Part shown: piece after piece, positions 10,799 through 46,874 of the stretch | How positions within the stretch are numbered: the stretch's first letter is position 1 | How the letters are laid out: every line of letters starts with the position of its first letter | Notes under the pieces: model-generated | What the model was told of the DNA's origin: nothing | The model's database searches: none | What the model saw: the letters and a program-made list of their open reading frames with translations, nothing else | Assembly (NCBI GenBank): GCA_963762555.1 | Contig: CAVXLO010000032.1 | Span: forward strand, 22,392 to 86,391 | DNA from: an uncultured Verrucomicrobiae bacterium | Lineage (GTDB): Bacteria > Verrucomicrobiota > Verrucomicrobiia > Limisphaerales > UBA8199 | Length of the DNA stretch: 64,000 bases | Reading direction: 5' to 3' | Translations under genes and position numbers: made by a program

Positions 10799-12620
10799 TT
10801 AGCTCGAGCCGCGCACCGAACCAGCCTGCCGCAACGGAAGGCGGGCGTCCGCATTCGCACGGTCCCGCAGCAGGTTCTCGGCGGCGGCCTGGGGCCTTCC
10901 CTCCGATTCGAGCTCCTGGGCGCGCGCACGGATGAGGCCCACGGCTGACTGGATCTGCCTGGAGCGCCTTATCCAGAGCTTCCTGCGCGCCTTGCTCCTC
11001 GCCGAGATCAAGGCAGCGGAACGCCAGTCGCGCATAGCCCTGGGCGTCGTGTGGGAGTGCCTCCGCCGCCAGGCGCTCGCGGCGGGCCCAGGTGTCCAGC
11101 CAGGCTGCCCGCCGGCGGCCGTCGGAGAAGTAGCGCGGGCCGAGTTGCTGAAGATGTTCCGCATAAGCCTGCCGGCGCTGCTCCTCGGTCCAGGGGCGCG
11201 TGTCAGGGGCCAGGCCGGATCGCCACACCTGTTCGGCCAGCGCTTGCGCAATCTTCTGGTGTCCGCCGATGGTTGGATGGACATGGTCCAGGTACCAGTC
11301 AAAGCCGGGGATGGAATCCGGCGCCTCGGCGGCGATGAGCGTTGCGGCGTCCACCAGGGGCGTGCCGGTTTCTGCGGCCACACGGGTGAGGATTTCCTGG
11401 AAGCCGGTGAGGATGCGCAACGGGCAGACATCCTGTTCCTTGGCCCTGATATAGTATTGGAGCGCTTCCGGCTTGCGACCCAGTTGGTCGAGCGTGCGCG
11501 CGATGCGGTAGTCGAGCAGGGCGTATTCGGAGTCAATCGCTTCCGCCTTGTGGTAGTAGCCCAGGGCGGCGGGCGCGTTGGTGAGTTCGGCGGCGGCGCC
11601 GGCCTCGAAGGCTTCCTGCCAGGCGAGTTCCTGGTCGGGGGAAAGGCCGGGCCTTCGCCGCGCCGAGGTGGAGGTCCCAACCGACCAAGGCATATCGGTG
11701 GAAGCTGGAGTTAGCGAGCCGCCAAGAGGGGCTCCGGCCACGCAGGCGGGCCGGTGTTCGGATTTGAAAGGCGGGCAATCGCGCAGGTTGACCCCGAGTT
11801 TGACCAGGATCATCGGCACCCGGGCGGCGCGGCAATCGGAAACCATTGTGCGCACTGAATCCTCGAATTGCGCGGTGACTCGCTCGCGCCAGGCATCGTC
11901 CCGATGGTAGGAGGCATACCCGCTGGCCTGATCGAGCTTGGCATTGACCTCGGGTGAGAGTTCCACCTTTTGGCCAGACGTTCGGTTCCCCATCCAATGG
12001 CGCGCGAGGTTCACGAGCCGGAGTGAATAGGCGGCGTTCTCCAGCTTTGCGCGCAGGGGGGAGCGCGTCTTGATGGCCTGGTAGGTGCGGTCCTCCAGGA
12101 ATTCGTTGTGCCCGGTCGCCAGGATCACCAGGTCGGGCTGGTAATGCAGAACCTCCTGGACGAGCGGCACCAGCCGGTAGCTGGCATAAGAGACGCCGCC
12201 GCAGTTGATGACTTCGTATGAGTGCGCGGGGTCTGCGGCCGCCAGCTCCATTTGTAGCCATTCGCAGAACGAGGTCTCACCTTCATAAGGGCGGCCGCAC
12301 ACGGTCGAACCGCCAAAGCAGAAGACGCGAAAGGCGTTGGCCGGCTTGGTGACGGGAAATTCCTGCGGATTGAAGTACGGCTCGCGCGCCCTGGCTGTGC
12401 GATAGACCGGTCCCTCCCGCACGAACAAGGGCAGCCGCTGGTTGAACCCGCTCAGTGCGTCGGTATTCTCCTCGGGCCGGCCTACGCCGACAAGCCGCAA
12501 GCCGCCTTCGGCCAGGACGAAGGGCAGGATCGCCAGGAAGACCGCGGCCACGCGGAACGCTGTCGAGCGCCATCGTCGGCTGCGACCGCCGCTTCCAGAG
12601 ATTGCGTTCGAATCGTCCAC
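10799..12620 (-). CDS. SGNH/GDSL-like hydrolase fused to C-terminal TPR repeats (one probable frameshift near 10948)
   Basis: ORF 10719..12620. It has an N-terminal TM helix, then FRVFCFGGSTVCG ... VINCGGVSYASYR ... DLVILATGHNEF (SGNH blocks), then TPR-like helices. After ...ALDKALQADP the sensible continuation (SAVGLIRARAQELESEGRPQAAAENLLRDRANADARL...*) lies in the frame of ORF 10799..11680, so the likely stop is 10799. Confidence 0.55.
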
Positions 12621-12769
12621 GAATATGCTAAGACTGATCGCGCTGCGGTGTGCGCAGCGCTAATTATCGGGCGAATTTACCATGAGCTATATAGACAGTC
12701 CATCGCGCAGCGGCGCCGGTGTGGAGGGTGGCCACGCCCTGTCACGGCCAGCGCGACGGCGGGGTAACT

Positions 12770-12887
12770 CCCTCTCCTCCACTGGAGGAGAGGGGCGGGG
12801 AGAGGAGGCCCCATGTTTTGAACCCGACTGAGCCCACCAGACCTTTGGAGCATACACGAACCCCTCTCCCCGCAAGCGGGGAGAGGG
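12770..12887. repeat. Two CCCTCTCC-N-GGAGAGGG type GC hairpins (REP-like)
   Basis: 12770..12794 reads ccctctcctcc-actg-gaggagaggg. 12862..12887 reads ccctctccccgc-aa-gcggggagaggg, a perfect 12-bp stem. Confidence 0.7.
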
Positions 12888-12982
12888 AAGCGCCCGGCAA
12901 TGCGCGGCAACAGGGCCAAGCCGTTCCAGCGGAAAGTCGGTCGGCGCGGTTTGAGGCTTCCAGGCTGGCCCGGACGGGACTG

Positions 12983-13759
12983 GTGATCGGCTTGTTGATC
13001 ACCGTGGGTGTGCTGACGGTGAACGTCTGGCTCTCTGCCCGCCTGACCGAGGATCTGCGGCGGGGAAGCCGGGAGCACGCATTCTGGGTGGTCTGCCAGC
13101 CGGGGCATTCAGCCGCCGAACGCGCTGGCGCGTTTCTGCAGCTTGCGGCGGCGGGCAACAAAGAGTGGCGCAGCGCCGATCTGCGTAATCTGAACCTGGC
13201 CGGGGCCATGTTGGGCGGGGCCGATCTGTCTTTTGCGCTGTTTAACGATGCCAACCTTGCGGGCGCGAATCTGGCCGGCGCGCGAGTTTTCAAGGGCTCG
13301 TTCGAGCAGGCGGACCTGAGGGGGGCCGACCTCAGCGATGCGGACCTTTCGGAGGCGCAGTTGTATCGGGCCGACCTCCGGGGAGCCAGGCTTCGCCGCG
13401 CGAAGCTGCGTGCGGCCTACTTGCAGGAAGTGCAGGCGGAAAAGGCCGACCTTACACTGGCCGATCTCTCGGATGCAATTTGCCCCATGGCGAGCTTCGC
13501 CGATGCGAGAATGAACGGGGCCAATCTGAGCGGAGCCAACCTCGAGGCGGCGGTCTTGCGCGGGGCTAATCTCTCGCTCGCCCGGTTGGATGGCGCTCAT
13601 CTGAAAGACGCGGATTTCACCAACGCCAACTGGTGGCGATCGCTCGGCCTGACTGTAGAACAGATCAACCTGCTCCAGAAGAAATTCGCGCCCGCCACCA
13701 ACGCTGAGCCGGCGCTGAAGCTCGACTACGACAAGTGGGTCCAGAGCTGGCCGCGCTAG
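12983..13759 (+). CDS. Membrane-anchored pentapeptide-repeat protein
   Basis: ORF 12719..13759. The first ~85 codons run through the REP hairpins, so I prefer the in-frame GTG at 12983, just before the TM helix IGLLITVGVLTVNVWLSA. The body is classic A(D/N)LxG pentapeptide repeats (ADLRNLNLAGAMLGGADLSFALFNDANLAGANLAGA...ADLRGADLSDADLSEAQLYRADLRGARL...). Confidence 0.75.
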   Translation: MIGLLITVGVLTVNVWLSARLTEDLRRGSREHAFWVVCQPGHSAAERAGAFLQLAAAGNKEWRSADLRNLNLAGAMLGGADLSFALFNDANLAGANLAGARVFKGSFEQADLRGADLSDADLSEAQLYRADLRGARLRRAKLRAAYLQEVQAEKADLTLADLSDAICPMASFADARMNGANLSGANLEAAVLRGANLSLARLDGAHLKDADFTNANWWRSLGLTVEQINLLQKKFAPATNAEPALKLDYDKWVQSWPR

Positions 13760-15345: not shown

Positions 15346-16321
<976 letters not shown>

Positions 16322-16586
16322 GTGTATTAACAAGACTAGACGAAGATAGACACGGATTCCACGGATTGTCACGGATAGCCGGGCCTCAATCCCTGGAACT
16401 TCGTGGAATCCGTGTCACCTTGAGGTGGGTCCTCATAGCTGTGCTGGCAGTCGGTGTATTTGAACGTCTCCCAGGTGCGGATCGGCTGACGGGGCGTCAC
16501 GGCGTCACAAGCCAGGTTGGCACGTAGCGGAGGTGTTTCCGGCAAGTGAGGCTTGTTTTCCGTTATCTCTCGCGTACTATTTTGCC

Positions 16587-16850
16587 ATGATGTTTCCGCT
16601 TTCCGCCTACATTGACGCCGCCCTGGAACTGGCGCGCTACGATAAGCTGGAAGACGGCTCGTTCGCTGGCGAAATCCCCAAGTTGAAAGGCGTGGCCGCG
16701 TTTGGGCCGTCGTTGCGGGCATGTGAAGACGAGTTGCGCTCCACGCTCGAGGACTGGATTCTCGTTGGCCTGAAGCTCGGGCACAAACTTCCCGTACTGG
16801 CCGGCATTGACCTGAACAAGGTGCGACATGGCCGGCTGGCGACCCATTAA
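16587..16850 (+). CDS. hicB: HicB-family antitoxin (UPF0150 N-domain type)
   Basis: From ATG 16587: MMFPLSAYIDAALELARYDKLEDGSFAGEIPKLKGVAAFGPSLRACEDELRSTLEDWILVGLKLGHKLPVLAGIDL. It overlaps the next ORF by 23 nt. Confidence 0.7.
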   Translation: MMFPLSAYIDAALELARYDKLEDGSFAGEIPKLKGVAAFGPSLRACEDELRSTLEDWILVGLKLGHKLPVLAGIDLNKVRHGRLATH

Positions 16851-17158: not shown

Positions 17159-17887
17159 CTACGGATACTCCGCCCGGAAGAACTGCCCGCCGCTCAAGGG
17201 CGAAAGCGTAACGTGGTTCTCCGCGCCGACCTGGGTGACCGCATTGGTGACGGTGGTCCATGGGCCCCCGGCGAGATTGGTGGTCTGGCACAGACTGGGG
17301 CACCATACCGGCCAGGCAACGAGAGCGCCTGCGTGGCTGAGGCGGGAAATCCGCACTGCTGGGGCGTATGGATAATAAGACCACGTGTCGTAGAAGGTAA
17401 CACTGCTGTTGTAGCCGCCCCAAACAATCATTTGGCTGCCTGTCCACACCGCAGTATGCCAATAGCGCGCAGGGGGTTCGCCTGTGGCGGGCAGCGCCGT
17501 CCAACTGTTGGCCACCAAGTTGTAGCGCCCGCCGGTGTTCAGCCCGTAAGAACCGTCCGGCCCATTATAACCGCCCCATAAGACCATCTCGCTGCCTGTC
17601 CACACGGCAGTGTGCGCAACGCGGCCGCCAGGCGCTCCGATCGTGGGCAAGGCCACCCAAGTGTTGGCGAGGGGATCGTAGCGCCCGCCGGTGTCCGGGT
17701 AAAAGGGACTGAGGCTGCCGTTGTAACCGCCCCAGACAATCATCTGACTTCCTGTCCACACTGCCGTGGGTCCCTCGCGCGCGGTGGGCGCGCTGTTGGT
17801 GGAAAGCTCCCACCAGGCGTTGGCCAGTGGGTCGAAGCGCCCGCCGTCGTTGAACCAAAAAAAGCGGTCGCTATAGGTACTTTCCAC
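17159..17887 (-). CDS. Kelch paralogue A, fragment 3/3: blades 5-7 and the C-terminal module
   Basis: ...FNDGGRFDPLANAWWEL...WHTAVWTGSQMIVWGG..., then TWSYYPYAPAVRISRLSHAGALVAWPVW...TTNLAGGPWTTVTNAVTQVGAENHVTLSPLSGGQFFRAEYP*. Confidence 0.75.
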   Translation of the reverse strand: MESTYSDRFFWFNDGGRFDPLANAWWELSTNSAPTAREGPTAVWTGSQMIVWGGYNGSLSPFYPDTGGRYDPLANTWVALPTIGAPGGRVAHTAVWTGSEMVLWGGYNGPDGSYGLNTGGRYNLVANSWTALPATGEPPARYWHTAVWTGSQMIVWGGYNSSVTFYDTWSYYPYAPAVRISRLSHAGALVAWPVWCPSLCQTTNLAGGPWTTVTNAVTQVGAENHVTLSPLSGGQFFRAEYP

Positions 17888-18317
17888 CCCAGATGATCAT
17901 CTCGGTACCGGTCCAAACTGCAGTGTGCGCGCTACGTGCGGTGGGCGCGTCGGTGGTCGGCACAGCCGTCCAAACGTTAGCCAGGGGATTGTAGCGCCCG
18001 CCTGTGTTCAAGAAGCCGCTGTCGTTCCCCCCGCCCCAGATGATCATGTCGCTACCCGTCCACACTGCGGTGTGGCCGACACGCCCGGCGGGCGCACTCG
18101 TCATGGGTAGTGTCGTCCAACTGTCGGCCGCCGGATCGTAGCGCCCGCCTGTGTTCAAGAAGCCGCTGCCGCCCGACCCGCCCCAGACGATCATTTCGCT
18201 TCCAGTCCATACCGCCGTGTGAAACCCGCGCCAGGCGGGCGCGCCGGTCGCGGACACTGCCGCCCAACTGCTGGCTATCGGGTTGTAGCGCCCGCCGTTG
18301 TCGAATGCCATAGCCAA
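17871..18317 (-). CDS. Kelch paralogue A, fragment 2/3: blades 2-4
   Basis: (M)AFDNGGRYNPIASSWAAVSATGAPAWRGFHTAVWTGSEMIVWGG... The fragment ends at a frame break near 17880. Confidence 0.75.
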   Translation of the reverse strand: MAMAFDNGGRYNPIASSWAAVSATGAPAWRGFHTAVWTGSEMIVWGGSGGSGFLNTGGRYDPAADSWTTLPMTSAPAGRVGHTAVWTGSDMIIWGGGNDSGFLNTGGRYNPLANVWTAVPTTDAPTARSAHTAVWTGTEMIIWGGKYL

Positions 18318-19101
18318 CTCCGCCCCAGACGATCATCTCGCTCCCAGTCCATACCGCCGTGTGGGCATAGCGCGCGATGGGGCTGGGCGAGTGGTCAGCG
18401 CGCTGCGCCCAAATACCCAGAGGCAGTTTGACGAGAACAGCCCCAGCATCAAAGATGTAGCTGCCATAGGCGGTCTGGGTGAAGGCATTCCAGCCCGGAC
18501 TGCCGGTGAGATTGCCGGCGATGGCCTCGGTGGAACGGGAACCGTCGGTCCTGACGTAGGTGCCGAAGACCTGGATGGTCGAGCGGACCCCGGGGATCAT
18601 GCCGATGAGGGCAGCGGGGAAGCTGAAGGTGTAGGGACCAGTGTCATTGAGGGGAGCCAGGTTGGCGCTGCCGAGATATACCAGACTGCCGTTGGTGCCG
18701 TTGGCCAACTGCCACAAGCTGCCCGACTCGACCGCCGACGGACCAAGCACAATGGCATAGTTGGGCTTGAACCCGCTGGCGAAGGTCAGCAGGCTGCGGC
18801 CTGAGGCGGAGACGCCCGAAATGGCCTGGCAGCGGTAGTCGCCCTGGTCGTTGAAGCCGGAGGTGTCGGCAAAGCCGCCCGGGCCGGACTGAATATACAG
18901 GACCAGCACGTCATTCATGCTGCCGACAACGGTGAGCGTGCCGGAGATGTTGGTGCCGTCATCAGTCAAGGTGAGCGTGCCGTTGCCGATGGCGCCGCCG
19001 AAGCCGGTGTCGCCGTTGCCGCGGTATTGGTCCGCGCGTGCGGGCCAGGCCGCCATTAGGACAGATGCGGCCAGGAGGAGGAATTGCGTCGTCGTTTTCA
19101 C
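18052..19101 (-). CDS. Kelch paralogue A, fragment 1/3: signal peptide, ~270-aa N-domain and blade 1
   Basis: It begins MKTTTQFLLLAASVLMAAWPARADQYRGNGDTGFGGAIGNGTLTLTDDGTNISGTL... and runs to ...YAHTAVWTGSEMIVWGG. Sense is lost after ~18310, where the frame of ORF 17871..18317 takes over. Confidence 0.75.
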   Translation of the reverse strand: MKTTTQFLLLAASVLMAAWPARADQYRGNGDTGFGGAIGNGTLTLTDDGTNISGTLTVVGSMNDVLVLYIQSGPGGFADTSGFNDQGDYRCQAISGVSASGRSLLTFASGFKPNYAIVLGPSAVESGSLWQLANGTNGSLVYLGSANLAPLNDTGPYTFSFPAALIGMIPGVRSTIQVFGTYVRTDGSRSTEAIAGNLTGSPGWNAFTQTAYGSYIFDAGAVLVKLPLGIWAQRADHSPSPIARYAHTAVWTGSEMIVWGGVGYGIRQRRALQPDSQQLGGSVRDRRARLARVSHGGMDWKRNDRLGRVGRQRLLEHRRALRSGGRQLDDTTHDECARRACRPHRSVDG

Positions 19102-19119
19102 AGTCGCTAGTTCACTGCA

Positions 19120-21066
19120 TCAGGGAGACTCCGCCCGGAAGAATTGGGTGCCGCTCAGCGGCGAAATAGTGACATGGTTCTCCGCGCCGACTTGGGTGAT
19201 CGCATTTGTAACGGTGGTCCACTCGCCCGCGGCCAGGTTGGTGGTCTGAGACAGGCGCAGGGTTGGGTACCACACCGGCCAGACGACGTCGGCGCTGAAA
19301 GGGCTTAAGCGGGCAATTCGCACTGCCGGAGCGTATGGAGAATAGGACCAAGTGTCAGAAAGGTACTGACTGCTGCCACCGTCTCCCCCAAAGAGGATCA
19401 TCTCGCTCCCGGTCCACACCGCCGTGTGAAAATAGCGGGCGACAGGCGCGTCGGCGCTCGGTACCGCCGTCCAACTGTTGCCCACTGGATTGTAGCGCCC
19501 GCCGTCTGCATAGGGGGTCCCGTTGTTGAACCCGCCCCAGACGACCATCTCACTGCCGGTCCACACCGCTGTATGGTACTGGCGCGGGCCGGGCGCGCCG
19601 ATAGTGGACAGGGCCGCCCAGCGATCGGCGGCTGGATTGTAGCGCCCGCCGTTATTGAGATAGCGGCTAGTGCTGGCGTTATATCCACCCCAGGTGATCA
19701 TCTCGGTCCCCGTCCAAACCGCCGTGTGCGAAAAGCGCTCGCTGGGCGCGCCGTTAGTCGGTATTGCCGTCCAAGTGTTGGCTGCGGGATCGTAGCGCCC
19801 GCCGTCGTTGTAATAGCCTCTAACCTTCGCTCCACCCCAGATGACCATCTCGGTACCCGTCCACACCGCGGTGTGACCACTGCGGGCAGCGGGCGCCCCA
19901 GTGGCGGTCACTATAGCCCAACTGTTAAGAGCCGGATTGTAACGCCCGCCGTCGTTCAACTGGCCGGTGAACGTAGAGAAGATGTATCCATATCCGCCCC
20001 AGACGATCATCTCGCTGCCCGTCCACACCGCTGTGTGGTAGTCACGCCCAGTGGGCGCACCGGTCGTCGGTAGTGACGCCCAACTGTTGGCTGTTGGATT
20101 GTAGCGCCCGCCATCGTTGGAGTAGCCGGTGCCGCTCATTCCGGCCCAGACGATCATCTCGCTGCCTGTCCACACTGCTGAATGGTTTAGCCGCTTGGCC
20201 GGCGCGCCGATGGTAGGCAAGGTCGTCCAAGTGTTGGCCGCGGGATTGTAGCGCCCCCCGTCGTTTAAGGCACCCCCCCCGTTCTGTCCGCCCCAGACGA
20301 TCATCTCGCTCCCTGTCCACACTGCTGTATGATAACGGCGCGCGACCGGCGAACTGCTAGAGGTCCGTTGTGCCCAAAGGCCGACGGGCAGTTTGATGAG
20401 GACGGCGCCAGCGTCGAAGGTGTAGCCGCCATAGGCCGTTTGGGTGAACGGGTTCCAGCCTTGGGTGCCGGTGAGGTCCCCGGCGATGGACTCGGTCGAG
20501 CGGGAGCCGTCAGTCCTGACATAGGTGCCGAAGACCTGGATGGTCGAGCGGACCCCGGGGATCATGCCGATGAGGGCGGCTGGGAAACTGAAGGTGTAGG
20601 GACCGGTGTCGTTGGGGGGAGCCAGGTTGACGCTGCCGAGATTTACCAGGCTGCCGTTGCCGCCGTTGGCCAACTGCCACAGGCTGCCCGACTCGACCGC
20701 CGATGGACCAAGGGCGATGGCATAGTTGGGCCGGAACCCGCTGGCGAAGCTCAGCACGCTGCGGCCCGAGGCGGAGACGCCCGAGATAGCCTGGCAGCGA
20801 TAGTCGCCCTGGTCATTGAAGCCGGCGGTGTCGGCAAAGCCGCCCGGGCCGGACTGAATATAGAGCACCAGCACATCGTTCATGCTGCCGCCGACGGTAA
20901 GTGTGCCAGAGATGTTGGTGCCGTCATCGCTCAGGGTTAGCGTGCCGTTTCCGATGGCGCCGCCGAAGCCGGTGTCGCCGTTGCCGCGGTATGGATCCGC
21001 TCGTGCGGGCCAGGCGGCGAACAACCCCAGGGCCGCGAGAAGGAGGAATGGAATGGTGCTCTTCAT
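19120..21066 (-). CDS. Kelch paralogue B (648 aa), the only uninterrupted copy: signal peptide, N-domain, 7 blades, C-terminal module
   Basis: ORF 19120..21222. I moved the start to ATG 21066 (MKSTIPFLLLAALGLFAAWPARADPYRGNGDTGFGG...) by analogy with the paralogues. I count seven H(T/S)AVWTG..M..(W/F)(G/A)G motifs. It ends QFFRAESP*. Confidence 0.85.
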   Translation of the reverse strand: MKSTIPFLLLAALGLFAAWPARADPYRGNGDTGFGGAIGNGTLTLSDDGTNISGTLTVGGSMNDVLVLYIQSGPGGFADTAGFNDQGDYRCQAISGVSASGRSVLSFASGFRPNYAIALGPSAVESGSLWQLANGGNGSLVNLGSVNLAPPNDTGPYTFSFPAALIGMIPGVRSTIQVFGTYVRTDGSRSTESIAGDLTGTQGWNPFTQTAYGGYTFDAGAVLIKLPVGLWAQRTSSSSPVARRYHTAVWTGSEMIVWGGQNGGGALNDGGRYNPAANTWTTLPTIGAPAKRLNHSAVWTGSEMIVWAGMSGTGYSNDGGRYNPTANSWASLPTTGAPTGRDYHTAVWTGSEMIVWGGYGYIFSTFTGQLNDGGRYNPALNSWAIVTATGAPAARSGHTAVWTGTEMVIWGGAKVRGYYNDGGRYDPAANTWTAIPTNGAPSERFSHTAVWTGTEMITWGGYNASTSRYLNNGGRYNPAADRWAALSTIGAPGPRQYHTAVWTGSEMVVWGGFNNGTPYADGGRYNPVGNSWTAVPSADAPVARYFHTAVWTGSEMILFGGDGGSSQYLSDTWSYSPYAPAVRIARLSPFSADVVWPVWYPTLRLSQTTNLAAGEWTTVTNAITQVGAENHVTISPLSGTQFFRAESP

Positions 21067-21071
21067 AGTGT

Positions 21072-21113
21072 GTAGTCCGCAGTCCGTAGTCCGTAGTCCG
21101 TCGTCAGTAGTCC
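21072..21113. repeat. Heptanucleotide array (GTAGTCC)n, 6 units, filling the Kelch C/B intergenic spacer
   Basis: gtagtcc gcagtcc gtagtcc gtagtcc gtcgtca gtagtcc. It lies between the stop of gene C (21120) and the ATG of gene B (21066). Confidence 0.9.
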
Positions 21114-21119
21114 AGTTCG

Positions 21120-21785
21120 TTAGGGATACTCCGCTCGGAAGAACTGGCTCCCGATCAGGGGCGACAGGGTGACGCGGTTCTCCGAGCCGATCCGGGTGAC
21201 CGCATTGGTGACGGTGGTCCATTGGCCCGAGGCCAGGTTAGTAGTCCGGCACAGGCGCAGCGTGCTGGACCACACCGGCCAGGCAACGTCGGCGCTGTTG
21301 GGACCGGACCGCGACATCCGCACCGCAGGCGCGTAGGGATAATAGGACCACGTGTCAGACAGGCAACCGCTATCGCCGTATCCTCCAAAGAGGATCATCT
21401 GGCCGCCGGTCCACACCGCCGTGTGATGGTAGCGGGCGGGGGGCGCGCTCGTGCTCTGCACTGCCACCCAACTGTTGCCCGCCGGGTTGTAACGCCCGCC
21501 GTCGTTCAAGCAAACACCGCTGTGGTATCCGCCCCAGACAATCATCTCGCTGCCAGTCCACACCGCAGTATGCGCATAACGTGCGCCGGGGGCGCCCGAG
21601 GTCGCCACCGCCGTCCAGCCATTGCCCGCGGGACTGTAGCGCCCACCGTCGTTTAGATAGACCGAACTGCCGCCATAGCAGTATCCACCCCAGACGATCA
21701 TTTCACTGCCCGTCCAGACCGCTGTGTGATTAACGCGTGCGGCGGGCGCGCCGTTGGTGGGTAAAGCCGTCCAACTGTTGGCCAT
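21120..21785 (-). CDS. Kelch paralogue C, fragment 4/4: blades 12-14 and the C-terminal module
   Basis: ...GDGARYNP(M)ANSWTALPTNGAPAARVNHTAVWTGSEMIVWGG... to ...TTNLASGQWTTVTNAVTRIGSENRVTLSPLIGSQFFRAEYP*. Confidence 0.75.
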   Translation of the reverse strand: MANSWTALPTNGAPAARVNHTAVWTGSEMIVWGGYCYGGSSVYLNDGGRYSPAGNGWTAVATSGAPGARYAHTAVWTGSEMIVWGGYHSGVCLNDGGRYNPAGNSWVAVQSTSAPPARYHHTAVWTGGQMILFGGYGDSGCLSDTWSYYPYAPAVRMSRSGPNSADVAWPVWSSTLRLCRTTNLASGQWTTVTNAVTRIGSENRVTLSPLIGSQFFRAEYP

Positions 21786-22791
21786 GGGATTGTAGCGCGC
21801 GCCGTCGCCATAGGTACTTCGTGTTGTTGCATCCGCCCCAGACCATCATCTCGCCGTCCGTCCAGACCGCCGTGTGACCATAGCGCGCGGCGGGCGCACC
21901 GTTGGTGGGTAGGGTCGTCCAACTGTTGGCTGCCGAACTGTAGCGCCCGCCGTCGTTTAAGTACCCGCCGCTGTTACCTCCGCCCCAGATGATCATCTCG
22001 TTGCCCGTCCACACCGCTGTGTGCCGATAGCGGCCCGCAGGCGCGCCGTTGGTAGGCAAGCCCGTCCAGTTGTTGGCCGCGGGATTGTAGCGCGCGCCGT
22101 CCCCATAATAAGTGAAGTTCAGGTTTCCACCCCAGACGATCATTTCGCTGCCTGTCCAGACCGCCGAGTGAAAATAGCGCGCGGCCAGCGCGCCGCTGGT
22201 GGGCAGAGCTGTCCAACTGTTGGCCGCCGGATTGTACCGCCCACCGTCGTTGAAATAGACGACGCCGTTGTATCCCCCCCAGACGATCATTTCGCTGCCG
22301 GTCCACACCGCCGTGTGATCGTAGCGGGCGGGGGGCGTGCCAGGCACTGCCATCCAACTGTTGGCCGCCGCGTCGTAGCGCGCGCCGTCGTTCAGGTCTC
22401 TGCTGCCGTCGTATCCGCCCCAGACAATCATCTCGCTGCCCGTCCACACCGCCGTATGTCCCCAGCGCGCAGCCGCCGCTGTGGTAGGCAGGGCCGTCCA
22501 ACTGTCGGCGGCTGGATTGTAGCGCCCGCCGTCATTCAAAAGGCCGCTGCTGCCGGATCCACCCCAGACCATCATTTCGCTGCCGGTCCACACTGCCGTG
22601 TGATAAGAGCGCGCGGCGGGCGCACCCGTCATTGGTACCGCCGCCCAACTGTCGAGCGTGGGATTGTAGCGCCCGCCGTCGTTTAAACACTGCCGCCCAC
22701 TCCGCCCCAGACAATCATTTCGCTGCCCGTCCACACCGCCGTGTGGTACCCGCGTGCGGCGGGCGCGCCGTTGGTGGGTAAGGCCGTCCAA
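21730..22791 (-). CDS. Kelch paralogue C, fragment 3/4: blades 6-11
   Basis: The sensible part runs from ...CLNDGGRYNPTLDSWAAVPMTGAPAARSYHTAVWTGSEMMVWGG to ...GHTAVWTDGEMMVWGGCNNTKY. The break is near 21818. Confidence 0.75.
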   Translation of the reverse strand: MDGLTHQRRARRTRVPHGGVDGQRNDCLGRSGRQCLNDGGRYNPTLDSWAAVPMTGAPAARSYHTAVWTGSEMMVWGGSGSSGLLNDGGRYNPAADSWTALPTTAAAARWGHTAVWTGSEMIVWGGYDGSRDLNDGARYDAAANSWMAVPGTPPARYDHTAVWTGSEMIVWGGYNGVVYFNDGGRYNPAANSWTALPTSGALAARYFHSAVWTGSEMIVWGGNLNFTYYGDGARYNPAANNWTGLPTNGAPAGRYRHTAVWTGNEMIIWGGGNSGGYLNDGGRYSSAANSWTTLPTNGAPAARYGHTAVWTDGEMMVWGGCNNTKYLWRRRALQSHGQQLDGFTHQRRARRTR

Positions 22792-23273
22792 CTGTTGGCC
22801 ATGGGATTGTAGCGCCCGCCGTCATTGAAATAGCCGCCGCCGTTGCTTCCGCCCCAGACGATCATCTCGCTGCCCGTCCACACCGCCGTGAGCGACTGGC
22901 GCCCGGGTGGCGCGCCGCTGGTGGGCAGGGCCGTCCAACTGTTGGTCGCCGGATCGTAGCGCCCGCCGTCGTTGAAAAAGACGTAGCCGTTGCTGTAGCA
23001 ATATCCGCCCCAAACGATCATCTCGCTGCCCGTCCACACTGCCGTGTGGTGCTGGCGTGCGGCGGGCGCGCCGTTGGTGGGTAAGGCCGTCCAACTGTTG
23101 GCCACGGGATTGTAGCGCCCGCCGTCATTGAAATAGCCGCCGCCGTTGCTTCCGCCCCAGACGATCATCTCGGTGCCTGTCCATGCCGCGGTGTGATATT
23201 CACGTGCTGCGGGAGCGCCGGTGGTGGGCAGCGGCGTCCAAGCATTGGCCACGGGATCGTAACGCGCCGCCAT
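22683..23273 (-). CDS. Kelch paralogue C, fragment 2/4: blades 2-5
   Basis: (MA)ARYDPVANAWTPLPTTGAPAAREYHTAAWTGTEMIVWGG... The break near 22688 falls at a tttaaa run (GGSV / LNDGGRYNP). Confidence 0.75.
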   Translation of the reverse strand: MAARYDPVANAWTPLPTTGAPAAREYHTAAWTGTEMIVWGGSNGGGYFNDGGRYNPVANSWTALPTNGAPAARQHHTAVWTGSEMIVWGGYCYSNGYVFFNDGGRYDPATNSWTALPTSGAPPGRQSLTAVWTGSEMIVWGGSNGGGYFNDGGRYNPMANSWTALPTNGAPAARGYHTAVWTGSEMIVWGGVGGSV

Positions 23274-24075
23274 CGTTGAAATAGCTGCTGCTGCCGTGGT
23301 CTCCGCCCCACAGGATCATCTCGCTGCCCGTCCAGATTGCTGTGTGCATAGAGCGCCCTGCCGGTGAGTAGGGCCGCTGCGCCCAAACGCCCAGGGGCAG
23401 CTTGACGAGAACCGCTCCGGCATGAAAGGTGTAGCTGGCATAGGCAGTCTGGCTGACAGGGTTCCAGCCTTGGGTGCCGGTGAGGTTGCCGACGATGGCC
23501 TCGGTCGAGCGGTAGCCGTTGGTGGAGACGTAAGTGCCGAAAAGCTGGAAGGTAGAGCGCACGCCCGGGATCATGCCGATCAGGGCCGCCGGGAAGCTGA
23601 AGGTGTAAGGGCCGGAGTCGTTGAGTGGCGCCAGATTGATGCCGCCCAGATACAACAGGCTATTGGTGTCCCCATTGGCCAACTGCCATACGCCCCCCGT
23701 GCCCCCTGCCGCCGGAGCCAGGGCGATGGCGTAGTTGGGCTGGAATCCACTGGCGAAGGTCAGCAGGCTGCGGCCCGAGGCGGAGACGCCCGAAATGGCC
23801 TGGCAGCGGTAGTCGCCCTGGTCGTTGAAACCGGAGGTGTCGGCGAAGCCGCCCGGGCCGGATTGAATATAGAGCACCAGCACGTCATTCATGCTGCCGC
23901 CGACGGTGAGCGTGCCGGAGATGTTGGTGCCGTCATCAGTCAAGGTGAGCGTGCCGTTGCCGATGGCGCCGCCGAAGCCGGTATTGCCGTTGCCGTGGTA
24001 TTGCTCCCCTTGCGCTGGCCAGGCCGCCAGCAACAAAAGGGCATTGAGAAAGAGGAATCTGCTAATCGTCTTCAC
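23200..24075 (-). CDS. Kelch paralogue C, fragment 1/4: signal peptide, N-domain and blade 1
   Basis: MKTISRFLFLNALLLLAAWPAQGEQYHGNGNTGFGGAIGNGTLTLTDDGT... to ...MHTAIWTGSEMILWGG. The frame breaks near 23270. Confidence 0.75.
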   Translation of the reverse strand: MKTISRFLFLNALLLLAAWPAQGEQYHGNGNTGFGGAIGNGTLTLTDDGTNISGTLTVGGSMNDVLVLYIQSGPGGFADTSGFNDQGDYRCQAISGVSASGRSLLTFASGFQPNYAIALAPAAGGTGGVWQLANGDTNSLLYLGGINLAPLNDSGPYTFSFPAALIGMIPGVRSTFQLFGTYVSTNGYRSTEAIVGNLTGTQGWNPVSQTAYASYTFHAGAVLVKLPLGVWAQRPYSPAGRSMHTAIWTGSEMILWGGDHGSSSYFNDGGALRSRGQCLDAAAHHRRSRST

Positions 24076-24140
24076 GGTGTGAGGGTTTAGGATTCACGAT
24101 ATGCGGTTTGCGATTGGTCGGTAGTCAGCACTTCATTGGG

Positions 24141-25214
24141 CTACGGATACTCGGCCCGGAAGAATTGCCTGCCGCTTAGCGGCGAAACGGTGACGTGGTT
24201 CTCGGAGCCGTCCTGAGTGGCTGCATTGGTGACGGTAGTCCATTGGCCGGAGGCAAGGTTAGTAGTCTGGCACAGACGCAGAGGGCTGGACCACACCGGC
24301 CAGGCGACGTCGGTACTGGTGGGGCTGGAGCGGGAAATCCGCACTGCCGGTGCATAGGGATAATAGGACCAGGGGTCAGCGAGGTAAACACCGCCGCCCT
24401 TAGATCCTCCAAATACAATCATTTCGCTGCCCGTCCACACCGCTGTGTGAAAGTAACGAGGGGCGGGCGCGCCGGCGGTCGGCATTGCCGCCCAACTATT
24501 GGCTGCGGGACTGTAGCGCCCGCCGTCGTTTAGCAAGCTGCCGTTGTGATAGCCGCCCCAGACGATCATTTCGCTACCTGTCCAGATCGCCGTGTGTCCA
24601 TAGCGTCCGGCAGGCCCGCTGGAGGCGGGCAGGCTCACCCAGCCATTGGCCACCGGATCGTAGCGTCCGCCGTCGTCGAAATAGGTGGCGGCGCCATTCC
24701 ATCCACCCCAGACGATCATCTCGCCGCCCGTCCAGACCGCCGTGGGGTAAAAACGCGCGGAGGGAGCGCCCGCGGTCGGCACTGCCGCCCAACTGTTGGC
24801 CGTCGGATTGAAGCGTCCACCGTTGTTTAAGTAGCCGGTGGTCGCGTTGTATCCGCCCCAGACGATCATCTCGCTGCCGGTCCACACCGCCGTGTGCGCA
24901 TAACGGGCGGCGGGCGCGCCAGTGGTGGGCACCGCCGTCCAAGCATTGCCTGTCGGATTATAACGCCCGCCGTTATTGAAATAGCTGCTGCCTTGCCCAC
25001 CCCAGACGATCATCTCGCTACCGGTCCAGACCGCGGTATGATTCACACGCGCGGCAGGCGCGCCGGTTGTTGGCACCGCCGTCCAACTGTTGGCCACCGG
25101 ATTGTAGCGCCCGCCATCGTTGAAGAGGCTGCTGCCTAGCCCACCCCAGACGATCATCTCGCTGCCCGTCCATATCGCCGTGTGATACTCACGGGCGCCG
25201 GGCGCACCGGTCAT
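24141..25214 (-). CDS. Kelch paralogue D, fragment 2/2: blades 9-14 and the C-terminal module
   Basis: MTGAPGAREYHTAIWTGSEMIVWGG... to ...TTNLASGQWTTVTNAATQDGSENHVTVSPLSGRQFFRAEYP*. A short third frame (SDGGRYNPTANAWSVMN) bridges 25258..25215. Confidence 0.75.
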   Translation of the reverse strand: MTGAPGAREYHTAIWTGSEMIVWGGLGSSLFNDGGRYNPVANSWTAVPTTGAPAARVNHTAVWTGSEMIVWGGQGSSYFNNGGRYNPTGNAWTAVPTTGAPAARYAHTAVWTGSEMIVWGGYNATTGYLNNGGRFNPTANSWAAVPTAGAPSARFYPTAVWTGGEMIVWGGWNGAATYFDDGGRYDPVANGWVSLPASSGPAGRYGHTAIWTGSEMIVWGGYHNGSLLNDGGRYSPAANSWAAMPTAGAPAPRYFHTAVWTGSEMIVFGGSKGGGVYLADPWSYYPYAPAVRISRSSPTSTDVAWPVWSSPLRLCQTTNLASGQWTTVTNAATQDGSENHVTVSPLSGRQFFRAEYP

Positions 25215-25217
25215 GGT

Positions 25218-27164
25218 TCATGACCGACCAGGCGTTGGCGGTCGGATTGTAGCGGCCCCCGTCAGACAGTAGTGGCTGCCCGTAGCCATATCATAGTAAT
25301 ACCCACCCCAAACGATCATCTCGCTGCCGGTCCAGACCGCGGTATGTTCGGAGCGCCCCGTTGGCGACGGGAACGCGGTCCAAGCGTTGGCTATCGGGTT
25401 GTAGCGCCCGCCATCATTCAGGGAGACGGGGCTGCCTCCGCCCCAGATGATCATTTCGCTGCCGGTCCACACCGCCGTGTGCAAAGAGCGCGAGGTGGGC
25501 ACGCCGTTAGTAGGCAGAGTTGACCACGTATTCGCCACCGGATTGTAGCGCCCCCCAGTGTTGAGATAGAAGGCGTTCCAATTTCCTCCCCAGATGACCA
25601 TCTCACTGCCGATCCAGACCGCGGTGTGATTACAGCGAAAGGTAGGTGCACCAGTGGCAGTCAAAGGGGTCCAACTGTCGGCGGTTGGACTATAGCGTCC
25701 GCCGTCGCTGAAATAGGTGCTACCGTTGCGTCCACCCCAGACGAGCATCTCGCTGCCCGTCCATACCGCCGAGTGTAACTCGCGCGCGACAGGCGCGCCA
25801 GCAGTTGGCAGGGCTACCCAACTATTGGCCGTTGGACTGTAGCGCCCGCCGTCGTTCAAGCGGCTGCCGTTGTATCCGCCCCAGATGATCATTTCCGTCC
25901 CGGTCCACACCGCCGTGTGCCACTGTCGGGCGGTCGGCGCGTTGGTGCTTGGGAGCGCGGTCCAACTGTTGGCCGTTGGACTGTAGCGCCCACCGTCGTT
26001 CCGGTAGCTGCCGTCGTATCCGCCCCACACTACCATTTCACTACCGGTCCACACTGCCGTGTGCCGATAACGTGGGGCAGGCGCGTTGGTCGTGGGCAGG
26101 GCTGCCCAAGTGTTGGCCGCTGGATCATAGCGCCCACCGTCGTTCAAATAGCCTCCATTAGATCCACCCCAGACGATCATCTCGGTGCCGCTCCAAACCG
26201 CGGTGTGACCAGCGCGGGCAACGGGCGCACCGGCGGTCGGCAGCGCGGTCCACATATCGGCCGCGGGGTTGTAACGGCCACCATCACTGAAGTAGCTGGC
26301 GCCGTCCCAGCCGGCCCAGACGATCATCTCGCTGCCCGTCCAGATCGCTGTGTGTGAGAAGCGTGCGGCGGGAGAATAACCTGGCCGCTGCATCCAGGCA
26401 CCCCGGGGCAGTTTCACCAGGAGGGCGCCAGCATCAAAGGTATATTCGGCGTACGCGGTTTGGGTGAAGGGATTCCAGCCCTGAATGCCGGTGAGGTCCC
26501 CGGCGATGGCCTCGGTGGAGCGGTAGCCGTTGGTGGAGACGTACGTGCCAAACACCTGGATGGTCGAACGGACGCCGGGGATCATTCCAATGAGAGCAGC
26601 CGGGAAGCTGAAGGTGTAGGGGCCGGAGTCGTTGAGGGGCGCCAGGTTGACGCTGCCCAGGTACACCAGGCTGTTGCTGCCACCGTTGGCCAACTGCCAC
26701 AGGCCGCTCATGCCGGCCGCCGCCGGAGCCAAGGCAATCGCGTAGTTAGGCCGGAACCCGTTGGCGAAGGTCAGCAGGCTGCGGCCTGACGCGGAAACAC
26801 CCGAAATAGCCTGGCGGCAGGCGTCGCCCTGGTCGTTGAAGCCGGAGGTGTCGGCAAACCCGCCCGGACCTGACTGAACATAGAGGACCAACACGTCATT
26901 CATGCCCCCTCCGACGGTGAGCGTGCCGGAGATGTTGGTGCCGTCGTCGGTCAAGGTGAGCGCGCCGTTGCCGATGGCGCCGCCGAAGCCGATGTCGCCG
27001 TTGCCGTGGTATTGATCGGCTCGCACCGGACCAGCGGCGAGCAGCCCTGCGGCGGCGAAGAGGGCGCCCAACCTGATTCGACTCACCGCCGGTCGCTCCC
27101 TTACAGGTCTGGCGGTGGCGGCCTTGGATTCAAAATGCACGAGTACAGCAGCCCTGGTTTTCAT
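25218..27164 (-). CDS. Kelch paralogue D, fragment 1/2: signal peptide, N-domain and blades 1-8
   Basis: 648-aa ORF. The paralogue-like signal peptide starts at an in-frame GTG at 27086 (VSRIRLGALFAAAGLLAAGPVRADQYHGNGDIGFGG...), so the ATG at 27164 may be too far upstream. Sense is lost after ...VWGGYYYDMATGSHY (~25258). Confidence 0.75.
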   Translation of the reverse strand: MKTRAAVLVHFESKAATARPVRERPAVSRIRLGALFAAAGLLAAGPVRADQYHGNGDIGFGGAIGNGALTLTDDGTNISGTLTVGGGMNDVLVLYVQSGPGGFADTSGFNDQGDACRQAISGVSASGRSLLTFANGFRPNYAIALAPAAAGMSGLWQLANGGSNSLVYLGSVNLAPLNDSGPYTFSFPAALIGMIPGVRSTIQVFGTYVSTNGYRSTEAIAGDLTGIQGWNPFTQTAYAEYTFDAGALLVKLPRGAWMQRPGYSPAARFSHTAIWTGSEMIVWAGWDGASYFSDGGRYNPAADMWTALPTAGAPVARAGHTAVWSGTEMIVWGGSNGGYLNDGGRYDPAANTWAALPTTNAPAPRYRHTAVWTGSEMVVWGGYDGSYRNDGGRYSPTANSWTALPSTNAPTARQWHTAVWTGTEMIIWGGYNGSRLNDGGRYSPTANSWVALPTAGAPVARELHSAVWTGSEMLVWGGRNGSTYFSDGGRYSPTADSWTPLTATGAPTFRCNHTAVWIGSEMVIWGGNWNAFYLNTGGRYNPVANTWSTLPTNGVPTSRSLHTAVWTGSEMIIWGGGSPVSLNDGGRYNPIANAWTAFPSPTGRSEHTAVWTGSEMIVWGGYYYDMATGSHYCLTGAATIRPPTPGRS

Positions 27165-45443: not shown

Positions 45444-46874
45444 ATGGCTCAACGCATCGTCATTGACCCCGTGACCCGCATCGAGGGCCACGCCAAGATC
45501 AGCATTTTCATGGACGACGCCGGCAACGTGTCCGACGCCGAGTTCCACGTCGTCGAGTTCCGCGGGTTCGAGAAGTTCTGCGAGGGCCGGCCCTACAGCG
45601 AGATGCCCGGCATCACGCCGCGCATTTGCGGCATCTGCCCGGTCAGCCATCTGCTGGCCTCGGCCAAGGCGGGCGACGCCATCATGGCCGTCAACATCCC
45701 GCCCGCCGCCGACAAGCTGCGCCGGTTGATGAACCTCGGCCAGATGATCCAGAGCCACGCGCTGAGCTTCTTCCACCTGAGCGCGCCGGATTTCCTGCTC
45801 GGCTGGGACACGCCGCCGGCCAAGCGGAATGTGTTCGGGCTGATCGCCTCCAACGCCGACCTGGCCCGCGCCGGCATCCGCCTGCGCCAGTTCGGCCAGG
45901 AGATCATCCAGATGCTCGGCGGCCAGAAGATTCATCCCGCCTGGGCCGTGCCCGGCGGCGTGCGCAGCGCCTTGACCGAGGAAGGCCGCGCGCGCATTCG
46001 CGCCTGGCTGCCCGAAGCCTATGCCACGACCAAGACGGCCTTCGACCTCTTCAAGAAGGTGCTCGACACCCACAAGAAGGAAGTCCAGATCTTCGGCAAC
46101 TTCCCCTCCCTGTTCATGGGCCTGGTGGAGCCGGACGGCACCTGGGAACACCACGGCGGCAAGCTCCGCTTCACCGACAGCAGCGGCAGCATCATCGCCG
46201 ACCAACTCGACCCGCAGAAGTACTACGAGTACATCGGCGAGTCGGTGCAAACCTCCTCCTACCTCAAGTCGCCCTATTACAGCCCGCTGGGGTTCCCGGA
46301 CGGCATGTATCGCGTCGGGCCGCTCGCCCGGCTCAACGTCGCCGAGCAAATGGGCACGCCCAAGGCGGATGCCGAGTTGAAGAAGTTCAAGAAGCTCACG
46401 CGCGGGCGGAGCGCGGTGACCTCGTCCTTCCTGTATCACTACGCGCGGCTGATCGAAATCCTCGCCTCCATCGAGCGCGTGGAAGCCGCGCTGGACGACG
46501 CCGACCTGCTCAGCGAGGACCTGCGCGCCGACGCCGGCATCAACAGCCTCCGCGGCGTCGGCGTCAGCGAGGCCCCGCGCGGCACGCTGTTCCACGATTA
46601 CACCGTGGACCGCGACGGCCTGCTCAAGAAGGTCAACCTCATCGTCGCCACCGGCCAGAACAACCTGGCGATGAACCAGACCGTCGCCCAGATCGCGCGG
46701 CATTACATCCGCGGCGACAAGATTCCCGAGCCGATGCTCAACCGCGTCGAGCACGGCATCCGCTGCTACGACCCGTGCCTGAGCTGCTCCACGCACGCCG
46801 TCGGGCAGATGCCCCTGCACATCCGGCTTATCGGCCCGGACGGGACGGTCCTGAACGAGATCGCGCGTGGCTGA
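45444..46874 (+). CDS. hoxH: HoxH, [NiFe]-hydrogenase large subunit (group 3d-like), intact
   Basis: 476 aa: [19 protein letters not shown]... It has the N-terminal Ni-binding motif [10 protein letters not shown] and the C-terminal motif DPCLSCSTH. Confidence 0.9.

Follow-up and report, generated by a model that had tools for sequence, protein, structure and literature searches.

Our analysis of a 64 000 nucleotide (nt) stretch of contig CAVXLO010000032.1 (GenBank assembly GCA_963762555.1) from an uncultured, soil-type Verrucomicrobiae bacterium, referred to throughout as the window, revealed that the four paralogous Kelch genes at positions 17159-27164 form a real and conserved tandem array, a cassette of a Limisphaerales-type Verrucomicrobiota genome. 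On balance, we favour a reading in which the cassette consists of old duplicates coding for extracytoplasmic binding scaffolds and a linked partner gene, and in which the frame breaks that interrupt three of the four Kelch genes are assembly errors. The preliminary description of this DNA, which was made from the sequence alone, overlooked both the conserved partner gene and the modular nature of the N-terminal domain (N-domain) that the four proteins share.

Layout and products of the array

The minus strand carries all four genes, which run from D through C and B to A in the direction of transcription and have the following layout:

Gene D: 24141..27164, minus strand; signal peptide, N-domain, 14 Kelch units and C-terminal domain (C-domain); ~980-1006 amino acids (aa) when repaired
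Gene C: 21120..24075, minus strand; signal peptide, N-domain, 14 Kelch units and C-domain; 985 aa when repaired
Gene B: 19120..21066, minus strand; one open frame of 648 aa; signal peptide, N-domain, seven Kelch units and C-domain
Gene A: 17159..19101, minus strand; signal peptide, N-domain, seven Kelch units and C-domain; 646 aa when repaired
Parts of gene B, minus strand: signal peptide 21066-20998; N-domain 20997-20371; seven Kelch units 20370-19351; C-domain 19350-19123

The spacers measure 18 nt (19102-19119), 53 nt (21067-21119) and 65 nt (24076-24140), so that the co-directional arrangement at 18-65 nt described earlier was reproduced in its coordinates, strand and spacing. A promoter and terminator scan over 15-28 kb returned the counts expected from shuffled sequence and was uninformative on operon structure. 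The product of gene B is identical to database protein P0007. Prior to repair, gene D is read as two open reading frames (ORFs; 25218..27164 and 24141..25214), and its true start is probably the GTG at 27086, which has AAGGGAG ahead of it and was favoured over the ATG at 27164. Full-length comparison of repaired A with B gave 71 % identity, and the same value was found between the intact 994-aa homolog P0001 and both repaired D and, over its full length, repaired C.

The ORF reading, the repair and the Pfam matches agree on a paralogous, secreted Kelch array with a shared three-part architecture, as had been proposed. Every array protein carries a predicted Sec signal, in which K/R and a hydrophobic stretch precede ARA-D, AQG-E or VRA-D (the hyphen marking the putative cleavage position), and the C-termini of A-D read ...QFFRAE(Y/S)P with no hydrophobic tail. 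Residues 212-575 of B matched the Pfam families PF24681 (216.6 bits against a cut-off of 50), PF24981 (143.1 against 50), Kelch_3 (89.6 against 22) and Kelch_1 (66.5 against 20.1), and the repeats of ~44-56 aa thus lie above Pfam gathering thresholds. The first ~210 mature residues and the last ~75 residues of B matched nothing in Pfam or NCBIfam. Cutting the units at the ...WGG motif gave 7, 7, 14 and 14 for A, B, C and D, 42 in total and the same numbers as the original motif count; a few degenerate units, e.g. PTAVW and LTAVW, escape the strict pattern H[TS]A[VI]W. The N-domain, previously put at ~270 aa, is actually ~210 aa long (mature residues 24-232 of B).

Frame breaks within and beyond the array

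Three-frame reading located two breaks in A, none in B, three in C and two in D:

Gene A, break 1: 18306, minus strand; +1 A
Gene A, break 2: ~17882, minus strand; extra base in GGAAAGTACCTAT, the extra T of AGTACCTAT being at 17881
Gene C, break 1: ~23265, minus strand; +1 G
Gene C, break 2: 22685-22687, minus strand; -1 in a TTT/AAA run
Gene C, break 3: 21816-21819, minus strand; extra T in AGTACCTAT, +1 (or -2)
Gene D, break 1: 25262-25267, minus strand; loss of 1 nt, the frame being left at ~25265
Gene D, break 2: 25212-25218, minus strand; 7-nt insertion AACCATG, the frame being regained at ~25215

At each break the frame that continued the blade consensus was chosen, and seven small corrections (A +1 and +1; C +1, -1 and +1 or -2; D -1 and +7 nt) yielded proteins of 646, 985 and 1006 aa for A, C and D. 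The repaired genes contain 0 nonsense codons and no deletion, and the blade consensus is kept downstream of every break. In gene D the two breaks are ~50 nt apart and jointly restore the frame, the insertion being an imperfect tandem duplication of 7 nt.

These lesions could be seen as the signature of a decaying array, in which A, C and D are frameshifted pseudogenes and B alone is functional. The two to three breaks in each of the three genes would fit such a history, the deposited gene calls P0037, P0122 and P0270 carry the identical truncations, and the passages searched of PMC9218822 document disrupted, highly repetitive Kelch-like propellers, one of them in Verrucomicrobia. However, same-strand frame switches were found throughout the window by a codon-usage Viterbi frame track, and several of these were confirmed independently, in particular within the following genes:

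Hox-type NAD-linked [NiFe] hydrogenase gene set: 41720-46871, plus strand; HoxE/F/U/Y/H-like, with 2Fe-2S_thioredx, Complex1_51K, NADH-G_4Fe-4S_3, Oxidored_q6 and NiFeSe_Hases domains
TSP3-repeat gene: 28004-29235, minus strand; secreted, two bacterial TSP3 repeat copies followed by a ~100-aa module ending (F/Y)FRG; two frame shifts
Giant secreted protein gene: 29239-38370, minus strand; ORF of 2536 aa with Laminin_G_3, CarboxypepD_reg and SdrD_B domains

At least six breaks in the Hox gene set cut single Pfam domains. The 2Fe-2S_thioredx domain of the HoxE-like gene is spread across two frames (profile positions 2-91 in 41720-42247 and 77-140 in 41922-42332), the NADH_4Fe-4S domain of the HoxF-like gene is in two pieces (profile positions 1-41 and 37-83), and each of the three domains of the HoxU-like gene lies in a different frame. 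The C-terminal continuation of the giant gene (29239-30900) passes through at least four frames within ~600 nt. Overall, at least 12 breaks lie outside the array compared to seven inside it, and breaks of the same kind and density as in the Kelch genes cut single domains of the HoxE/F/U-like genes and also interrupt the TSP3 and giant genes and the partner gene described below. As the window contains a break in roughly every 2 kb, an unbroken gene of 1.9 kb is unremarkable.

A pseudogene would be expected to carry lesions specific to its locus and signs of further decay; here the lesions are equally frequent in unrelated genes, and removal of the seven small indels leaves no nonsense codon, deletion or loss of blade consensus. 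Orthologous arrays are also intact. Because equally dense breaks split single Pfam domains of unrelated genes, and because the repaired genes are undamaged, we infer from the sequence that indel errors made in assembly, and not pseudogenisation, most likely explain the seven breaks in A, C and D, and we consider decay of the array improbable. The earlier observation that only B is uninterrupted therefore stands as regards the reading frames, B being in a single frame and A, C and D being broken, whereas the significance it implied does not, given that breaks of the same kind and density occur in the HoxE/F/U-like genes and that the partner and the two genes upstream of the array are broken too; if the breaks are assembly errors, B being the sole intact copy has no biological meaning. 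Before frame breaks in repeat genes of metagenome-assembled genomes are called pseudogenes or phase variation, they should be weighed against how often the ordinary genes nearby are broken.

Truncated N-domain ORFs in other assemblies were considered as a recurrent biological truncation and rejected, as contigs L083 and L084 are fragmented in nearly every gene. At 7453-9615 of L083 (ENA ERZ25039558 contig_38934, from a relative and in a very noisy assembly), a Kelch gene of the present family has a transposase gene (PF21804) situated between its N-domain and its C-domain, and this position suggests disruption of that gene by an insertion sequence.

The 9-mer AGTACCTAT occurs exactly twice in the window with both strands counted (17881 in A and 21818 in C), and both sites are frame breaks that are mended by removing the final T. 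These breaks suggest a context-dependent consensus error, their recurrence being due either to an error specific to that context or to coincidence, and a k-mer enrichment analysis around the frame breaks gave no convincing shared motif. A biological switch, in the form of phase variation in short nucleotide runs or of a programmed +1 frameshift within AGTACCTAT, would account for the same extra T in A and C within a sequence absent elsewhere in the window. In A, CTA is followed in the zero frame by the stop codon TAG, an arrangement reminiscent of stop-stimulated +1 sites, and two other breaks fall within short A/T runs. However, there is no stop at the site in C, the runs are just 3 nt long, and unrelated genes are likewise broken. 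Programmed frameshifting at AGTACCTAT is very unlikely, because the remaining five breaks share no motif and because the homologs are all in frame, with no loop among the 120 best hits needing such a shift. A switch of either kind is, in our assessment, extremely improbable.

Divergence and conservation of the array

The blade DNA had been described as near-identical and the locus as prone to recombination and misassembly. Our comparison contradicted the former and left the latter concern largely unfounded: the paralogs share 70-75 % DNA identity over kilobases, the blade copies are 60-91 % identical to one reference copy, only two exact repeats of ≥60 nt are present within the 10 kb, and the array is intact in an independent metagenome. 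The first of these repeats is a perfect tract of 80 nt in the N-domain DNA of A and C (18929-19008 and 23903-23982), for which 0.001 would be expected by chance; the surrounding alignment is 85 % identical, and the tract is a candidate for a short gene-conversion event. The second is shared by blades C03 and C05, whose protein sequences are 94 % identical. Between paralogs, amino acid identity is greatest in the N-domain (81-90 %), followed by the C-domain (71-82 %) and the blades (median 63 %). As third codon positions in the N-domain are merely 69-79 % identical among the paralogs, the duplicates are old.

A search for the same architecture in other genomes, which the preliminary description had proposed, recovered many intact homologs of ~640 and ~990 aa from the databases, as well as further four-gene arrays. 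An intact array of four genes, coding for proteins of 634, 986, 606 and 657 aa and with spacers of 20-53 nt, is present on contigs L001 and L002, which come from two separate Joint Genome Institute (JGI) metagenome samples. In relatives, the number of gene copies ranges from one to four.

These data also bear on the possibility of an assembly chimera, in which the array, or its numbers of genes and blades, arose by repeat collapse or mis-joining. There are 42 similar units within 10 kb, a 7-nt imperfect tandem duplication at one of the two breaks in D, and an assembly that is clearly error-bearing. However, the N- and C-domains are complete in all four genes, the units number exactly 7 or 14, matching the intact ~640- and ~990-aa homologs, and independent metagenomes hold four-gene arrays of 7- and 14-unit members. 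Misassembly by repeat collapse is unlikely because the paralogs are 70-75 % identical, with only the two long exact repeats, and because intact arrays exist elsewhere, and we regard a chimeric origin of any kind as highly unlikely.

The Kelch propeller

The fold was modelled on a homolog with 14 units, P0011, which is 67-70 % identical to the window proteins and is not itself encoded in the window. The model is confident at residues 241-569 and 594-908 and dips in confidence at 570-593, which fits 14-unit proteins predicted to form two seven-unit propellers joined by a low-confidence hinge, and agrees with the earlier proposal of single and double propellers. Foldseek matched the model to the Kelch domains of KLHL12, LZTR1 and SAKe6, with template-modelling (TM) scores normalized to the target of 0.72-0.79 and E values of 1e-14 to 1e-16. 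With the first incomplete unit excluded, median pairwise blade identity was 59 % in A, 61 % in B, 67 % in C and 65 % in D. Variability is focused on a length-variable loop after WGG and on the two residues before HTAVW, while identical residues are conserved across every blade. Dockerin or SLH domains are present in relatives of the propeller.

Bacterial Kelch propellers include enzymes, and the array could code for sialic acid mutarotases of the NanM/YjhT type or for radical copper oxidases resembling galactose oxidase. Many homologs have been named 'N-acetylneuraminic acid mutarotase' by JGI, weak matches to TIGR03547, PRK14131 and Pfam NANM were obtained, and Pfam describes Kelch_3 and Kelch_4 as 'galactose oxidase, central domain'. 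However, the matches scored below the respective cut-offs (TIGR03547, 44.9 against 256.35 bits; PRK14131, 36.9 against 416; NANM, PF24996, 43.1 against 45) and comprised blade-repeat stretches of 48-75 aa instead of the full length. Blade identity of ~63 %, with the same residues in every blade, points to structural conservation rather than to a single asymmetric active site, and the 14-unit forms and the fusion to adhesion-type modules suit binding proteins better. A non-catalytic scaffold is favoured over an enzyme because of this uniform blade conservation, the two variable loop positions and the doubled unit number, and we judge an enzymatic role to be distinctly unlikely.

The N-domain and C-domain

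The N-domain was found in 607 cluster representatives at E≤1e-3 (full-library phmmer). It occurs alone with a PEP-CTERM tail in proteins of ~245 aa (29 of the 47 aligned members), and its neighbours in other proteins are PEP-CTERM, Por_Secre_tail (type IX secretion system, T9SS), Ig I-set, CHB_HEX_C, Fn3_assoc, CBM20 and F5/8-C. Up to three copies are accompanied by seven Ig I-set domains in P0121 (1403 aa), and in P0132, P0136 and P0142, which are 1200-1800 aa long, it is found with CHB_HEX_C and Fn3_assoc repeats. An AlphaFold2 model of the N-domain, based on the 47-sequence alignment, is all-beta with a predicted local distance difference test (pLDDT) score of 91.7. The nearest Protein Data Bank (PDB) structure to this model is 4jpq, a putative carbohydrate-binding protein, at a TM score of 0.41; the N-domain profile found nothing meaningful among PDB sequences, and no NCBIfam model matched the N-domain of the window. 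The separate model was taken in preference to the N-domain of the full-length AlphaFold2 model, which was left unused as its pLDDT was 20-38, a consequence of the shallow alignment. The N-domain is thus an unannotated extracellular module, modelled as a beta-sandwich, that has no Pfam model or close solved fold.

The C-domain (~75 aa) has seven predicted strands in the P0011 model and no family match. A sorting domain shared between the C-domain of B and the C-terminal module of the TSP3 protein, suggested by '...FFR...' in both, was dropped as there was no significant similarity. Neither Pfam nor NCBIfam matched PEP-CTERM in B, this signal being carried solely by the stand-alone N-domain homologs. 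Similarly, no Por_Secre_tail or CHU_C match was found in B at E≤1, and these were present just in the other N-domain proteins P0175 and P0171.

The partner gene

Two features follow gene A in the direction of transcription:

Partner gene: 15346..16321, minus strand; secreted, ~300-320 aa, one frame shift near 16196-16203; ~840 nt downstream of A
UPF0150/HicB-like antitoxin-family ORF: 16533..16850, plus strand; between gene A and the partner, Pfam PF21748, E 1.2e-26

In L001, a secreted partner of 319 aa (12048..13007) is encoded 73 nt downstream of the last Kelch gene of the array. A tblastn search with this intact protein gave 75 % identity at 16203..15349 of the window, with residues 16-46 matched in another frame at 16288..16196, and the Viterbi track placed the frame switch at 16188/16189. 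The HicB-like ORF is probably an insertion that does not belong to the cassette.

Of 84 loci retrieved through their similarity to the Kelch protein, ~65 have the partner, which either follows the Kelch gene directly or is fused in frame just upstream of the propeller. Of the 120 best protein hits, 67 begin with the partner sequence, which takes up ~120-290 N-terminal residues, and the partner shares contigs with at least seven further Kelch homologs. As the partner is found fused or split across loci, there is good evidence, from gene order and fusion, for a functional and likely physical partnership with the propeller. All 928 hits to the partner family are 'hypothetical' and have no Pfam domain, and the partner profile had no match in PDB. 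Rotamase_2 was matched by eight of 19 members, all below the cut-off and with a best E value of 0.0085, and hhalign aligned the C-terminal motif ...PGDVSAVIETPGGFLLYVA with the parvulin domain of the SurA-like protein encoded in the window over 31 columns (E 0.003, probability 10 %).

Proposed function

We propose that the four old tandem duplicates would encode modular proteins exported by the Sec route, with the secreted partner of ~300 aa encoded after them. Each protein would comprise an N-terminal beta-sandwich of ~210 aa, one or two seven-unit propellers and a seven-stranded C-terminal beta domain of ~75 aa, and would act outside the cytoplasm as a non-catalytic, multivalent scaffold that binds glycan or protein. 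Specificity may reside in the two hypervariable positions that each blade has in its loops, in which case the paralogs would form a small repertoire. The partner may act physically with the propeller as a co-factor, possibly as a chaperone resembling SurA or parvulin; a physical role is suggested because other phyla fuse the partner N-terminally to the propeller. The superfamily is likely to be extracytoplasmic, since dockerin or SLH domains are found in propeller relatives and surface anchors in relatives of the N-domain. By analogy, ligand binding in the extracellular space or the periplasm is the most likely function. In line with the preliminary description, which knew of none for this combination of domains, Pfam, NCBIfam, PDB and the literature yielded no described function, and the literature searches turned up no characterized bacterial member.

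Several observations weigh against this proposal. The frame breaks are unevenly clustered, with 7.3 kb of the giant gene free of them, and two share the 9-mer AGTACCTAT, which is odd for random error. The binding function is suggested by analogy and by the co-occurrence of domains, and the idea of a chaperone is weak, given the best Rotamase_2 E value of 0.0085, the 31 columns aligned by hhalign at 10 % probability and the absence of a match in PDB. A-D also have no recognizable surface anchor or outer-membrane secretion signal, and they could therefore equally be periplasmic.

A wider interpretation, which we advance as speculation with little confidence, is that the Kelch and partner proteins constitute an undescribed and widespread extracellular two-component module, fused or split, in Verrucomicrobiota, Acidobacteriota, Planctomycetota and Gammaproteobacteria. 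A dedicated SurA/parvulin-like partner would fold, hold or present the large and recently amplified propellers, the hypervariable loops would provide a diversifiable repertoire of binders (e.g. for polysaccharide capture or cell-cell and cell-matrix adhesion), and the N-domain would represent a novel fold for surface display, in common with PEP-CTERM and T9SS cargo. Soil and freshwater Verrucomicrobiota encode many large secreted proteins without a known role, and our study defines a cassette of propeller paralogs and partner as well as a common unannotated module, predicted to be a beta-sandwich, with 607 representatives. The occurrence of gene fusions makes the physical partnership testable.

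Other features of the window

Two further loci were recorded. ARAGORN called a tRNA-Pro(CGG) at 58891-58987 on the plus strand, which at 97 nt is unusually long for a bacterial tRNA-Pro; Rfam gave no matches at the gathering threshold here or in the whole window. On the minus strand, an ORF of 149 codons without a family match comes directly after a PIN-domain ORF (59598-60002), in frame with it and past one stop (59148-60002 overall), and the two may represent a toxin-antitoxin pair.

Comparison with known systems

NanM/YjhT (COG3055; TIGR03547, PF24996) resembles the array proteins in being a periplasmic or secreted bacterial Kelch propeller, and is the source of the name given by JGI to the homologs. 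NanM is a single six-bladed enzyme of ~350-390 aa, whereas the array proteins have 7 or 14 near-consensus units and two flanking domains, and no full-length match above the NCBIfam or Pfam cut-offs places them in the NanM/YjhT family. The best structural matches of the propeller model were the eukaryotic, substrate-binding KLHL12 and LZTR1 and the designed protein SAKe6, whose Kelch domains are binding platforms that act through loops on one face. This group is six-bladed, cytosolic and joined to BTB/BACK, and at 21-26 % identity to the propeller model it shows no evolutionary or functional link beyond the fold.

The N-domain connects the array to PEP-CTERM exosortase cargo, as its stand-alone homologs (~245 aa) carry PEP-CTERM, whereas A-D do not. 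One N-domain homolog, P0148, resembles the flocculation protein PepA (floc_PepA, NF033554) at aa 97-237, beyond the sorting signal (E 2.5e-10), with a floc_PepA score below the cut-off (40.6 against 80 bits). The partner was compared with the periplasmic parvulin chaperones of the SurA, PpiD and PrsA type, as it is a secreted protein of ~300 aa; the faint resemblance in its C-terminal part reaches no curated threshold.

The closest known systems to the propellers themselves are the 'highly repetitive, recently amplified' propellers of Pereira & Lupas 2022 (PMC9218822), defined in the passages searched by a median pairwise identity of >60 % over consecutive blades. By our global pairwise alignment, a method unlike that of PMC9218822, B, C and D (61, 67 and 65 %) exceed this value and A is borderline at 59 %. 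As in the propellers treated in those passages, the unit numbers are multiples of the usual blade number of the family. The same source includes a Kelch-like propeller from Verrucomicrobia that is disrupted by a frameshift, unlike the present case, in which the frame breaks appear to be assembly errors. It considers each propeller individually, and the passages searched mention neither an architecture of N- and C-domains nor tandem arrays nor a partner gene. Taken together, these comparisons place the repetitive Kelch propellers of the array within a known kind; what is new is their architecture, together with the N-domain as a module and the partner gene linked to the array.

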